From a virus (Duplodnaviria; Heunggongvirae; Uroviricota; Caudoviricetes): a stretch of DNA of 7,977 nt. Below the pieces are notes generated by a model. That model worked only from the letters and a program-made list of their open reading frames with translations, was not told where the DNA came from and did no database searches. The stretch is taken from IMG/VR virus record IMGVR_UViG_2545824714_000009; one strand, written 5' to 3'. The translations under genes were made by a program, and so were the position numbers. Below are positions 3,138 to 7,162 of this stretch, in pieces (the first letter of the stretch is position 1; each line of letters opens with the position of its first letter).

Positions 3138-3830
3138 TTAATTATGTCTCTTAAGGGTTTGCGACTGACTGATTAAGACCTTTCCAAAGACCATGAATCG
3201 GTGTTCGTTTTCGCTAGTAATTCCCCATTCACGGTAAATCTGGTTATCAGAAATCACCAGCAGTTTGTCAGGAATCATTTGAAGTCTTTTAACGTATATT
3301 TTGTCATCAAAACCAAAGACATATATACCATCACCATCAAACTGATTGATGCTGACATCAACGAAGATGAGATCTCCGGGCTCAATGGTTGGACACATAC
3401 TGTCCCCACGAACGTTGATAACTTTGATGTGATTGGCTGGTCGTCCGCCGAACATTGATACAGCATTATCAGTTCTGTATTCGATGGCATGAATCACATC
3501 AATGACATCACCGCCCTGGATAAGGCCATTTCCCGCACTGGCACTGATATCCAGCATTTCAATACGGAACACATCCTTCACCTGCGCAACATCCTCATTA
3601 TTACTGTTTTTATATACAGTATTACTTTTGTGGGCAGAGGTAAAGAGATCAGCAATATCAACACCTAAGCTCTTGGCAATATTACTCAGTGTTTGTTCGG
3701 TAAATTGTTTTTGCTTACCCGTTTCTAAGCGCGAGATGTTCGCCGCATCTACTCCTATCGCTTCAGCGAGATCGGCGATTTTCATGTTCTTCGCTTGGCG
3801 AAGTTGTCTGACTCGGTTTCCTATGTTCAT
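3138..3830 (-). CDS. cI: CI-like prophage repressor: N-terminal XRE-type HTH plus C-terminal S24 (LexA-like) autopeptidase domain
   Basis: 230-aa ORF. N-terminus RVRQLRQAKNMKIADLAEAIGVDAANISRLETGKQ is an XRE-type HTH; there is an Ala-Gly candidate cleavage site (SASAGNG), a catalytic Ser in GDSM and a Lys in YVKRL. It is divergent from a Cro-like gene. No SD upstream; the -10/-35 spacing suggests a leaderless mRNA. Confidence 0.9.
   Translation of the reverse strand: MNIGNRVRQLRQAKNMKIADLAEAIGVDAANISRLETGKQKQFTEQTLSNIAKSLGVDIADLFTSAHKSNTVYKNSNNEDVAQVKDVFRIEMLDISASAGNGLIQGGDVIDVIHAIEYRTDNAVSMFGGRPANHIKVINVRGDSMCPTIEPGDLIFVDVSINQFDGDGIYVFGFDDKIYVKRLQMIPDKLLVISDNQIYREWGITSENEHRFMVFGKVLISQSQTLKRHN
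3602..3621. promoter_or_regulatory. Near-consensus LexA (SOS) box located inside the cI coding sequence
   Basis: TACTGTTTTTATATACAGTA matches the E. coli LexA box consensus TACTGTATATATATACAGTA at 18 of 20 positions, with intact CTGT-N8-ACAG. It is the only CTGT-N8-ACAG in the window and encodes TVYKNS in the CI inter-domain linker. Confidence 0.45.
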
Positions 3831-4188: not shown

Positions 4189-4732
4189 GCATCACTGGAA
4201 AGTAGAAAAACAGCCTGAGTGGTACGTGAAAGCTGTCAGAAAAACTATCGCAGCGTTGCCGGGGGGGTACGCTGAAGCTGCTGACTGGCTGGATGTAACA
4301 GAGAACGCATTATTTAACCGCCTTCGTGCCGATGGCGATCAGATTTTCCCGCTGGGATGGGCAATGATTTTGCAACGTGCTGGTGGAACTCACTTCATTG
4401 CTGACGCTGTGGCGCAGTCTGCAAATGGCGTCTTTGTGTCTCTTCCTGATGTCGAGGATGTGGACAACGCCGATATCAACCAACGCCTGCTGGAGGTCAT
4501 TGAACAGATCGGCAGTTATTCAAAACAGATTCGTTCAGCAATCGAAGACGGTGTAGTGGAACCGCATGAGAAAACTGCAATTAACGACGAGCTATATCTC
4601 TCAATTTCGAAGCTGCAGGAGCATGCAGCACTGGTCTACAAAATCTTTTGCATTTCAGAAAGTAATGACGCCCGCGAGTGTGCAGCTCCGGGCGCCGTGG
4701 CGTGTCGTGACTGTGGAGAAACTAACGCATGA
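4181..4732 (+). CDS. CII-position early protein (183 aa); possibly YdaT/CII-like regulator, with a C-terminal Cys cluster
   Basis: GTG start at 4181 preceded by AGGAGGT with a 5-nt spacer, overlapping the cro stop by 8 nt. Sits directly after cro. C-terminus contains CxxxxxxxCxxC ([12 protein letters not shown]). Family assignment is from recollection and context only. Confidence 0.7.
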
Positions 4733-5067
4733 ACAGTTTAACAACACACTACCGTCGCTCGCAACTGATTGCGCTTCCTGTACCGGGTGGAAAAGCGAAG
4801 GTGGAGTATTGCTATGCAGTAAATGTACCAGGTGACAGGGAAATTGTAACCCACAGCTTTGCAGAGTGGGCTGTGGGTGATTTCAACCGGCAGAAGGAGA
4901 CAGTCCTTTGCGACAAGTTAACCGCTGGTTCAAAGATCACTACGGAGTGCCCGTCAGAGTCATTCGTTGGGAACCGGAAACACAACGGGTTATCTACCTC
5001 CGCGAAGGCTATGAGCATGAGTGCTTCAGTCCGCTCGAACAGTTTCGTCGTAAATTCAGGGAAATAG
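4729..5067 (+). CDS. Hypothetical early protein with likely disrupted reading frame (frameshift candidate or two overlapping small genes)
   Basis: ATG at 4729 overlaps the upstream stop (ATGA). The first ~63 codons look protein-like (…[38 protein letters not shown]), then the frame becomes Ser-rich. The other frame from ~4908 to 5087 reads as genuine protein ([54 protein letters not shown]) and has AAGGAG 9 nt before a TTG at 4908. Confidence 0.4.
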
Positions 5068-5076
5068 AGGTCGGTC

Positions 5077-6018
5077 ATGAGCACTAAATTAACCGGCTAT
5101 GTATGGGATGGTTGCGCAGCGTCAGGCATGAAATTATCCAGCGTGGCAATTATGGCCCGCCTGGCTGATTTCAGTAATGACGAAGGTGTGTGCTGGCCAT
5201 CAATTGAAACCATTGCCCGTCAGATTGGCGCGGGGATGAGTACCGTCAGAACGGCTATCGCACGGCTGGAAGCAGAAGGCTGGTTAACGCGTAAGGCGCG
5301 TCGCCAGGGTAACCGCAATGCGTCGAATGTTTATCAGCTTAACGTTGCGAAGCTTCAGGCAGCGGCATTTTCTCAACTGTCAGATTCTGACCCGTCAAAA
5401 TCTGACGCATCAAAATCTGACCCGTCAAAATTTGATGCGTCGAAATCTGGCAAAAAAGCGGGTTTTCACCCGTCAGAATCTGGCGGGGATCCGTCAGTAA
5501 AATCAAAACATGATCCGTCAGATAAAAAAACTTCTCGTCCGGACGCTTCGCAACCGGACACGCAGACGGCTGAACAGGAGTTTTTAACTCGCCATCCTGA
5601 TGCGGTTGTATTCAGCCCTAAAAAGCGCCAGTGGGGAACGCAGGATGATTTGACCTGCGCACAGTGGCTCTGGAAAAAAATCATCGCCCTGTACGAGCAG
5701 GCCGCCGAATGTGACGGCGAGGTGGTTCGTCCCAAAGAACCGAACTGGACAGCCTGGGCAAACGAAATTCGCCTGATGTGTGTGCAGGATGGTCGTACTC
5801 ATAAACAAATCTGCGAGATGTACAGCCGCGTCAGTCGCGATCCGTTCTGGTGCCGTAACGTGCTCAGCCCGTCGAAGCTGCGGGAAAAATGGGATGAGCT
5901 TTCCCTGCGCTTATCGCCGTCCGTCAGCACGTACACCGAAAAACGCGAAGACCCGTACTTCAAAGCCAGTTACGACAACGTGGACTACAGCCAGATCCCG
6001 GCAGGATTCAGGGGGTGA
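5077..6018 (+). CDS. Phage replication initiator: N-terminal winged-HTH domain, internal repeat region, DnaT-like C-terminal domain
   Basis: 313-aa ORF with GAGG 7 nt upstream. N-terminus (…WPSIETIARQIGAGMSTVRTAIARLEAEGWL) is HTH-like. The C-terminus ends …DYSQIPAGFRG, resembling the C-terminal end of E. coli DnaT as I recall it (…SQIPPGFRG). An iteron array lies inside the gene, as in lambda O. Confidence 0.85.
   Translation: MSTKLTGYVWDGCAASGMKLSSVAIMARLADFSNDEGVCWPSIETIARQIGAGMSTVRTAIARLEAEGWLTRKARRQGNRNASNVYQLNVAKLQAAAFSQLSDSDPSKSDASKSDPSKFDASKSGKKAGFHPSESGGDPSVKSKHDPSDKKTSRPDASQPDTQTAEQEFLTRHPDAVVFSPKKRQWGTQDDLTCAQWLWKKIIALYEQAAECDGEVVRPKEPNWTAWANEIRLMCVQDGRTHKQICEMYSRVSRDPFWCRNVLSPSKLREKWDELSLRLSPSVSTYTEKREDPYFKASYDNVDYSQIPAGFRG
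5386..5530. repeat. Iteron array plus A-rich tract inside the replication gene: candidate origin of replication
   Basis: 15-bp periodic units TCTGACCCGTCAAAA / TCTGACGCATCAAAA / TCTGACCCGTCAAAA / TTTGATGCGTCGAAA (5386-5445), with further CCGTCAG cores at 5470, 5491 and 5515, followed by GATAAAAAAAC (5521-5531). The coding-level equivalent is a DPSKS/DASKS pentapeptide repeat. Confidence 0.65.
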
Positions 6019-6020
6019 GC

Positions 6021-6509
6021 ATGAGTCTTTTGAATGACGTTCAGAAATTCATTGAAGCCCATCCGGGCTGTACTTCCGGAGATATTGCGGATGCTTTTGC
6101 CGGTTACTCACGGCAGCGCGTTCTGCAGTCAGCAAGCAAGTTACGTCAGAGTGGGCGTGTGGCTCACCGTTGTGAAGGAGATACACGCAGACATTTCCCG
6201 CGCCTGACTGAGAGAGCGCAGGAACCGGAACCACAACCAGTTCGTGAAACCAGACCTGTGCGCAATTTCTATGTCGGCACTAACGATCCCCGTGTGATTT
6301 TGTGCCTGACCCGCCAGGCGGAAGAACTGGAGTCCAGGGGCTTATACCGTCGTGCTGCAACCGTGTGGATGGCGGCATTCCGTGAAAGCCACTCCCAGCC
6401 AGAACGAAACAATTTTCTGACGCGTCGTGAGCGGTGCTTACGGAAAAGCAGCAAGCGCGCTGCATCGGGTGAAGAGTGGTATCTGTCAGGGAATTACGTG
6501 GGGGCTTAA
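6021..6509 (+). CDS. Regulator with PerC/Pch-like C-terminal region and an N-terminal winged-helix-like extension
   Basis: ATG at 6021, 3 nt after the replication gene stop, with a G-rich SD. The motif AEELESRGLYRRAATVWMAAF…RRERCLRK resembles the PerC/Pch signature as I recall it; the N-terminal ~45 aa look like a small winged helix. The track's start at 6015 is a GTG that overlaps the upstream stop. Confidence 0.7.
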   Translation: MSLLNDVQKFIEAHPGCTSGDIADAFAGYSRQRVLQSASKLRQSGRVAHRCEGDTRRHFPRLTERAQEPEPQPVRETRPVRNFYVGTNDPRVILCLTRQAEELESRGLYRRAATVWMAAFRESHSQPERNNFLTRRERCLRKSSKRAASGEEWYLSGNYVGA

Positions 6510-7162
6510 TGAGTAATAAATATTGCCAGGCGCTGGTGGAACTGCGGAACAAACCAGCCCATGAACTGAAGGAAGTGGGCGATCAGTGGCGCACGCCGGA
6601 CAACATTTTCTGGGGAATTAACACCCTGTTTGGCCCGTTTGTTCTGGATCTGTTCACTGACGGTGATAACGCCAAATGTGCCGCGTATTACACGGCGGAA
6701 GACAACGCGCTGGCGCATGACTGGTCAGAACGTCTTGCGGAGCTTAAAGGTGCTGCCTTTGGTAATCCCCCATACAGCCGCGCCAGTCAGCATGAGGGGC
6801 AATACATCACCGGCATGCGTTACATCATGAAACATGCCAGTGCCATGCGTGATAAGGGCGGGCGCTATGTTTTCCTGATCAAAGCTGCCACCAGCGAAGT
6901 GTGGTGGCCGGAAGATGCAGATCATATTGCTTTTATTCGCGGGCGTATTGGTTTTGAACTGCCTGTCTGGTTTATCCCGAAAGACGAGAAGCAGGTACCG
7001 ACAGGAGCTTTTTTCGCTGGTGCTATTGCTGTTTTTGACAAGACCTGGAAGGGACCGGCAATCAGCTACATCGGGCGCGATGAACTTGAGGCATGTGGTG
7101 AGGCGTTTCTGGCGCAGGTTCGCCAGCAGGCGGAAAAACTGGTCAGGGAGATGGCGGCATGA
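6509..7162 (+). CDS. Phage Dam-family DNA N6-adenine methyltransferase (orphan; no restriction partner in window)
   Basis: ATG at 6509 overlaps the upstream TAA (translational coupling; alternative GTG at 6476). Contains the NPPY catalytic motif (FGNPPYSR) and WRTPDNIFWG…FVLDLFTD, typical of phage Dam-type methyltransferases. Confidence 0.85.
   Translation: MSNKYCQALVELRNKPAHELKEVGDQWRTPDNIFWGINTLFGPFVLDLFTDGDNAKCAAYYTAEDNALAHDWSERLAELKGAAFGNPPYSRASQHEGQYITGMRYIMKHASAMRDKGGRYVFLIKAATSEVWWPEDADHIAFIRGRIGFELPVWFIPKDEKQVPTGAFFAGAIAVFDKTWKGPAISYIGRDELEACGEAFLAQVRQQAEKLVREMAA

Follow-up and report, generated by a model that had tools for sequence, protein, structure and literature searches.

The window analysed here is a 7,977-nt stretch of the virus record IMGVR_UViG_2545824714_000009 (Caudoviricetes). 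It represents the early-right part of a lambdoid prophage of the SfII/SfIV type, with 98-99.5% identity to phages SfII, SfIV and vB_EcoS-569R4. Its genes are, in order, cI (on the minus strand), cro, a CP76-type cII, a small open reading frame (ORF), a gene for a 313-residue O-like replication initiator, and genes for a PerC-like protein, Dam and a LexA-like protein. The initiator is 99-100% identical to the SfII and SfIV proteins annotated as 'O protein family' or 'replication protein', and its gene is the only one of an SfII-type phage recognisable as a replication gene; no helicase, loader or primase gene was found in the SfII genome. The genes on its 3´ side do not include the adjacent P-type loader of a lambda O/P module. 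The middle of the initiator gene carries an array of short dyad-symmetric repeats (Table 1) that, on the sequence comparisons given below, is very probably the replication origin of SfII/SfIV/CPS-53-type prophages, located inside the gene for its own initiator as in lambda. The 261-bp origin region was found in 2058 of 5426 complete E. coli genomes, K-12 strains among them, and the element that bears it also occurs in Shigella serotype-converting phages.

A first-pass annotation, made from the letters of the DNA, had placed four contiguous 15-bp units here. Such units were recovered with Tandem Repeats Finder (TRF) as an array of period 15 (5386-5449; 4.3 copies, 81% matches, score 86), which also fits a period of 30 (88% matches, score 100). 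The unit TCTGACCCGTCAAAA, with up to three mismatches allowed, occurs five times, where 0.33 occurrences are expected; a count of five was not reached in any of 200 shuffles that preserve dinucleotides. A better register is provided by the 12-mer TCAAAATCTGAC, copies of which start at 5380, 5395, 5410, 5425 and 5440 with zero to two mismatches, all in frame 0. Taken with the preceding base, each copy approximates a 13-bp palindrome and several form one (e.g. GTCAGATTCTGAC), giving five head-to-tail iterons and a sixth, separated one. The repeats fall in codons 102-150, in the stretch that separates the DNA-binding domain from the C-terminal one, and the array region encodes SDPSK SDASK SDPSK FDASK. 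The 41.5-kb SfII genome has no other tandem repeat, and all its copies of the 12-mer with one mismatch or none lie in this array.

For comparison, a scan of one genome per species yielded 80 loci, of which 40 were kept whose N-domain DNA is less than 90% identical to one another; counts of loci below refer to these 40 except in the tail survey. A position-weight matrix built from their 195 units gave the conserved unit TCARAATCTGAC, read as TCA-RAA-TCT-GAC and followed by a free 3-bp spacer that forms a variable codon (P, A, T, G, V or R). The heptamer CCGTCAG, which the first-pass annotation had taken for the repeat core, is thereby displaced, its CCG being the variable spacer codon. The three further CCGTCAG copies that it listed beyond the array do occur, at 5470, 5491 and 5515; they are unlike one another, the first lying in the sixth iteron and the other two in separate GATC-containing 15-mers. 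The window holds 10 copies of the heptamer against 0.74 from shuffles, an excess that is mostly background, with 4.1 copies per 8 kb in SfII DNA beyond the array. Window copies that lie in other frames (4951, 5217, 5243 and 5921) were discarded as background, given the phage-wide frequency and the lack of conservation of their codons. Across the SfII genome (L084) we also counted 21 copies in the 41 kb outside the origin, about five times the number predicted from dinucleotide shuffles of the window.

Homologues carry two to nine units, differing in 15-bp steps, and their linker length differs by steps of five amino acids; the proteins of close relatives have 313, 303, 318, 323 and 287 residues. 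The codons TCA, GAA and TCT of the sixth iteron are fixed in 20/20, 35/35 and 37/39 loci, respectively, and a TTT codon in the spacer between iterons 5 and 6 is identical in 40/40. The palindrome region of this spacer (5447-5472) scores as a minus-strand terminator-like hairpin, one of four weak ones in a scan of 4700-6200, and the A6 run together with CGGGTTTTCACCCG could be a site of intrinsic bending or a structural part of the origin. We also considered a long-range inverted repeat (5110-5126 with 5539-5555, 15 of 17 positions complementary), which was rejected since it is not kept in the 40 relatives and shows no compensatory changes.

Table 1. Features of the initiator gene and of the candidate origin within it (window coordinates; aa, amino acids; pLDDT, predicted local distance difference test)
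Feature	Position	Strand	Details
O-like replication initiator gene	5077..6018	+	ORF of 313 aa; phrog_391 'replication initiation O-like', E 1.6e-135
N-terminal winged-helix DNA-binding domain	5077..5373	+	aa 1-99; Pfam HTH_36, E 4e-11, aa 23-70
Disordered linker coding sequence	5383..5574	+	aa 103-166; pLDDT <50; holds the whole origin candidate
Five head-to-tail iterons	5379-5391, 5394-5406, 5409-5421, 5424-5436, 5439-5451		13-bp dyads (G)TCARAWTCTGAC, 15-bp spacing
Spacer between iterons 5 and 6	5452..5471		A6 run, T4 run, small palindrome CGGGTTTTCACCCG (5459-5472)
Sixth, separated iteron	5472..5484		GTCAGAATCTGGC; 12-mer from 5473; 33 bp beyond the fifth
Two GATC-containing 15-mers	5488-5502; 5512-5526		GATCCGTCAGTAAAA; GATCCGTCAGATAAA; 24 bp apart; core GATCCGTCAG plus A/T
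A/T-rich low-stability stretch, candidate DNA unwinding element	5496..5535		72% A+T; A7 run 5524-5530
Right-arm palindrome	5537..5559		GTCCGG-N11-CCGGAC; just right of the A/T-rich stretch; role putative
C-terminal helical domain	5641..5910	+	aa 189-278; homologous to lambda O C-terminal domain; model pLDDT 84-91
C-terminal tail SQIPAGFRG	5989..6015	+	aa 305-313; 8/9 residues as in host DnaT C-terminus SQIPPGFRG (L085); both end the protein

Among the 40 loci, the DNA of the linker is held more tightly than the protein it encodes. From the N-domain to the linker, nucleotide identity rises from 71% to 85%, whereas amino-acid identity falls from 80% to 75%. When two loci share an amino acid, they use the same codon for it in 41% of cases in the N-domain, but in 90% in the distal linker (median 99.8%; Mann-Whitney p = 1.3e-9). 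In columns of conserved amino acids in the N-domain, the commonest codon has a share of 0.44, 0.51 and 0.63 for four-fold, six-fold and two-fold degenerate residues, respectively, compared with ~1.0 in the distal linker. Codon choice in the tandem units is similarly skewed: 81% of serines are encoded by TCA or TCT versus 22% in the N-domain, and 97% of lysines by AAA versus 60%. Because synonymous sites of the linker are frozen while its amino acids vary, selection acts on the nucleic acid. Constraints at the DNA and protein levels had earlier been proposed to coincide here. The repeats do encode the disordered linker, as that proposal had it, but the DNA constraint dominates, with linker amino acids varying more than those of the folded domain and linker nucleotides varying less. 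We infer that the SDxSK pentapeptide repeat is largely a by-product of binding sites placed in a disordered linker. The locus would then be a clean natural example of DNA-binding sites dictating the sequence of a protein linker, and the origin reading would explain the odd pentapeptide repeat of a very common 'helix-turn-helix domain-containing protein'.

The repeats also vary together with the DNA-binding domain, each N-domain class having its own dyad repeat at the same position in the gene. Class A, to which the repeat TCARAATCTGAC belongs, is joined by a class B (Erwinia, Edwardsiella, Morganella and Mixta; N-domain ~57% identical) with TTGA-SSSS-YCAA at 15-bp spacing in both orientations, and by single loci with repeats of their own: TCTGAACGTTCAGA in L018, GTGAGGGCTCAC in L052, GGTGAA-N5-TTCACC in L076, TCAGAWTCTGAA in L17 of phage phiP27 and three copies of GGGCAGGAGCTGCCC in O of phage phi24B. 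The class B dyad is translated as IDPSN or as VEGST, depending on its orientation. N-domain classes also differ in the residues of the predicted recognition helix (amino acids 54-66), which may account for their different repeats. Further, the N-domain and the repeats, as one segment from residue 1 to about residue 161, were found fused to at least three unrelated C-terminal parts, with homology breaking right after '..QPD'. Such joint travel is the pattern expected of a DNA-binding domain and its cognate sites.

The domains on either side of the linker have different affinities. For the N-domain, the AlphaFold model (pLDDT 80-90) has the order H-H-H-H-E-E-H (H, helix; E, strand), Foldseek against PDB returned MarR-type winged helix-turn-helix dimers and generic winged-helix regulators only, and the Pfam matches were HTH_36, GntR and other winged helix-turn-helix families, without Phage_rep_O. 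No plasmid Rep family scored above its own cutoff in the window protein; RP-C (E 0.005) stayed below its cutoff, and these were weak helix-turn-helix matches only. The C-terminal domain is related to the O proteins of lambda, 434 and 933W (tblastn, 35% identity over amino acids 131-277, E 4e-18). The BLASTP alignment of the initiator with 434 O (E 7e-26) begins only at residue 70. The C-terminal region also matches 'replisome organizer' PHROGs and proteins of Bacillus phages. Sequence searches of PDB with the protein, its family profile and its tail gave only the MarR-type winged helix-turn-helix matches, with nothing for the C-domain or the tail.

Beyond the iterons lies a second conserved block. 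The gene's most invariant DNA runs from the sixth iteron to the end of the two GATC-containing 15-mers, with the codons GAT in 40/40, GTA in 40/40, TCA in 34/34 and 38/38, and GAT in 37/37 loci; the GAT codons at 40/40 and 37/37 fix the two GATC sites (5488-5491 and 5512-5515). A GATCCRTCAG sequence followed by A/T is present as well in the initiators of class B, class C, L052 and phiP27, despite their other iterons. As it is common to classes with different iterons, this block is not a specificity element and would be better read as an unwinding or regulatory part. It overlaps the least stable 40-mer of the gene (5496-5535, rank 0 of 902), a stretch that is interrupted by GATCCGTCAG and ranks among the 3% of lowest stability in the window. 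Applied to phage 434, the same stability calculation picks out the AT-rich region known from ori-lambda, and it also finds the homologous block in L005, L012, L023 and L052. The A-rich tract that the first-pass annotation saw after the repeats is real, if modest, consisting of the A7 run. The phage also encodes a Dam methylase (6476-7162), three genes downstream of the initiator. The window as a whole shows no excess of GATC (28 versus 31 expected). The two invariant GATC sites together with a phage Dam suggest methylation-dependent (Dam/SeqA) control of origin firing.

A palindrome is found at the position of the right-arm palindrome in relatives too (loci L022-L081). In most class A loci it is GGTTGC-N3-GCAACC, of which GGTTTC-TGC-GAAACC is a variant that looks compensatory, and in Providencia and Proteus loci it is instead TTCGTC..GAATTC..GACGAA, which resembles the right-arm palindrome of lambda. 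As a separate observation, lambda/434 DNA immediately to the right of the AT-rich region (L082 1560-1590, TCGTCAGAGAATTCTGGCGAATCCTCTGAC) resembles window positions 5469-5497 (CCGTCAGAATCTGGCGGGGATCCGTCAG); this likeness may reflect shared descent of the right arms of the origins, or chance.

The initiator ends in …VDYSQIPAGFRG, and the residues of its DnaT-like tail are invariant or nearly so in the loci designated A1. In some relatives the DnaT match extends over ~20 residues (RERDINAISRPDTTIPPGFRG). Beyond the tail, no DnaT likeness was detectable apart from a weak PNWTAWANEIRL / PDWQPDADFIRL match, and no relevant paper was found for the tail motif string in the literature searched. We surveyed tails against loader genes within ~2.4 kb downstream in 79 loci, which are not phylogenetically independent. 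The 51 loci with a GFRG tail had no loader in 50 cases and a DnaC-like gene in one, and the 18 with a W-x2-IW tail had no loader. All eight loci with a lambda-like W..L tail had a lambda-P homologue (PF06992), and lambda-P homologues followed only such initiators. Two loci had other tails, one (L070) with a DnaC-like gene and one with none. This suggests that the type of tail selects the helicase-loading pathway, with the GFRG tail tapping the host DnaT/DnaC route. How DnaT hands over DnaB/DnaC was still called unknown in a 2026 structural paper (PMC13377028). If the suggestion is true, the tail would be the long-sought element by which DnaT does so. The correlation of tail with loader offers a testable handle on helicase recruitment by DnaT. 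This is the part of the analysis that could matter more.

Together, the features are compatible with the following course of initiation. Transcription from pR would yield the O-like initiator, dimers of whose winged-helix N-domain would bind the six 12-13-bp iterons. The resulting nucleoprotein complex would strain the adjoining block (5488-5535), which is proposed to open there because it contains the least stable duplex in the gene, along with the two conserved GATC sites. The lambda-O-like C-domain and the DnaT-like tail would then recruit host DnaB, probably via DnaC. A more specific version is a two-part cassette, in which class-specific iterons are joined to a shared block of two GATCCRTCAG-A/T copies coupled to Dam, and a DnaT-mimicking tail captures DnaB-DnaC without a phage loader; this version we offer tentatively, as a possibility that we would not yet favour.

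The lambda-like, iteron-type origin proposed in the first-pass annotation is supported by several lines of sequence evidence, namely the anatomy of the region and its uniqueness in the genome, the DNA-level selection seen in frozen synonymous sites, the covariation and co-inheritance of repeats with the DNA-binding domain, the low-stability block, and the homology of the C-domain to lambda O. Several points weigh against this reading. That synonymous sites are frozen proves that the nucleic acid is under selection, but does not show for which function. One Salmonella prophage, which looks intact and whose early region is apparently complete, retains just two units and the distal block; a four-unit tandem array is therefore not indispensable. 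The two retained units recall the minimal ori-lambda with two iterons cited in PMC7466680. The A/T-rich stretch is weaker than that of lambda/434 (72% versus 78% A+T; nearest-neighbour free energy of -46.2 versus -42.4 kcal/mol per 40 bp). Finally, the iterons are 12-13 bp long at contiguous 15-bp spacing (~1.4 helical turns), where those of lambda are 18 bp long at ~20-24 bp.

In an alternative reading, the conserved DNA is some other cis-acting site, such as autoregulatory operators, a host-factor or SeqA/Dam site or an mRNA structure, and the origin lies elsewhere. The frozen synonymous sites, the invariant GATC pair of the distal block in a phage with its own Dam gene, and an A/T-rich stretch that is just moderately unstable, would fit such a site. 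On the other hand, the 41.5-kb SfII genome contains no further repeat cluster or candidate origin, and both architecture and position match ori-lambda, next to a C-domain homologous to that of lambda O. Dyads that are specific to a class and track the N-domain behave as initiator-iteron pairs do, no Rfam family matched in the window, and no promoter was found in the scan of 4700-6200. We therefore consider this alternative unlikely.

Two other explanations would dispense with a binding site altogether. The repeat might be merely a slippage-prone, low-complexity linker, produced by tandem duplication and concerted evolution and having no role as DNA; close relatives do differ by whole 15-bp units, and the segment is modelled as disordered. 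Slippage sits poorly with the persistence of the codons TCA, AAA, TCT and GAC, and of GAT CCG TCA GTA, across genera in which flanking synonymous sites have been randomised. Nor does it fit repeat amino acids that change by single-base steps while the dyad stays, or the class B dyads, whose two orientations encode different peptides, and we regard it as very improbable. An overlapping second gene might likewise freeze synonymous sites, and candidate ORFs exist at 5318-5500 (plus strand) and 5339-5506 (minus strand), one antisense frame being free of stops in 24/40 loci. Since every alternative frame is interrupted in some of the 40 loci (open in 0, 0, 0, 2 and 24 of 40), an overlapping gene does not explain the conservation, which also runs past the ends of the ORFs; we give this explanation almost no credence. 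With an origin inside the initiator gene as the preferred reading, knowledge of the origin and of the cognate initiator domain should help to predict which prophages can still replicate.

We also noted several features around the initiator gene. Immediately 5´ of it, an ORF of 112 amino acids (4729-5067) matches phrog_1170, of unknown function, and is annotated as DUF4222 in relatives. It accompanies the initiator regardless of the type of C-terminal domain and may be a replication accessory. Within the cI repressor gene region, TRF reported a weak 9-bp tandem repeat, ATGACATCA, in three copies (3484-3510, score 33). In K-12-like E. coli chromosomes (L003 and L004), the tblastn match to the initiator begins at residue 79, and the frame extended from it has 235 amino acids in which linker repeats are not evident; the initiator gene there may be 5´-truncated or repeat-less, in a defective prophage. 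A small replicon relying only on the initiator gene was sought in a plasmid collection, where the matches were prophages on large or mis-assigned replicons.

Among known systems, the closest in layout is ori-lambda, as found in lambda, 434 and the Stx phages. There, too, dyad-symmetric repeats are arrayed within the middle, linker-coding part of the initiator gene, and beyond them come an A/T-rich stretch of low stability and, next, a palindrome. The initiator is also encoded, as in lambda, in the pR operon after cro and cII, and its C-terminal domain is homologous to that of lambda O. In phage 434 the annotated gpO iterons are O codons 117-145 and precede the AT-rich region. With the repeats in the same place before a homologous C-domain, the topology is that of lambda. 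The number of iterons varies between relatives of lambda as well, being four versus six in lambda and Stx phages and adding residues to O (PMC7466680), much as copy number varies here. The differences from lambda lie in the N-domain, which is HTH_36 rather than Phage_rep_O, in the two invariant GATC sites beside a weaker A/T stretch, and in the absence of a P gene together with a tail that is DnaT-like and not lambda-like.

The N-domain itself points to another set of phages. L17 of phiP27 and O of phi24B/Min27, which are of the HTH_36 type, have related N-domains (44% and 43% identity, respectively) and dyad repeats at the same position in the gene. The likeness is greatest for phiP27, in which 15-bp TCAGAWTCTGAA units are accompanied by two GATCC-containing A/T repeats spaced by 24 bp; the repeats of phi24B are G+C-rich 21-mers, unlike those of the window. 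The C-domains of these proteins differ from the one described here, and phiP27 encodes a DnaC-like loader and a helicase, and phi24B a primase-helicase. No origin annotation of the phiP27, phi24B or Min27 repeats was present in the database records examined. The same holds for origin annotation of SfII-type phages, and no description of an SfII, SfIV or SfV origin was found in the literature searched.

Iteron plasmids such as pSC101, R6K and P1 (oriR) offer a more distant parallel, in that a winged-helix Rep protein binds direct repeats beside an A/T-rich unwinding element, and in P1 oriR GATC-containing repeats depend on Dam. In such plasmids the iterons are located outside the rep gene, measure ~19-22 bp and have a phasing of about two helical turns, unlike the in-gene iterons of the window with their 15-bp spacing, and no homology of the initiator to plasmid Rep was found beyond the weak helix-turn-helix matches. 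Repeats bound by an initiator within its own coding sequence are also found in phages of Gram-positive bacteria (SPP1 with G38P and oriL, and lactococcal TP901-1). Their hosts are distant, the repeats and partner proteins differ, and only the C-terminal domain is related. The arrangement described here is a textbook one, and this undescribed member of the family can best be classed as an origin of the lambda type, with an O-like initiator of the HTH_36 type serving it.

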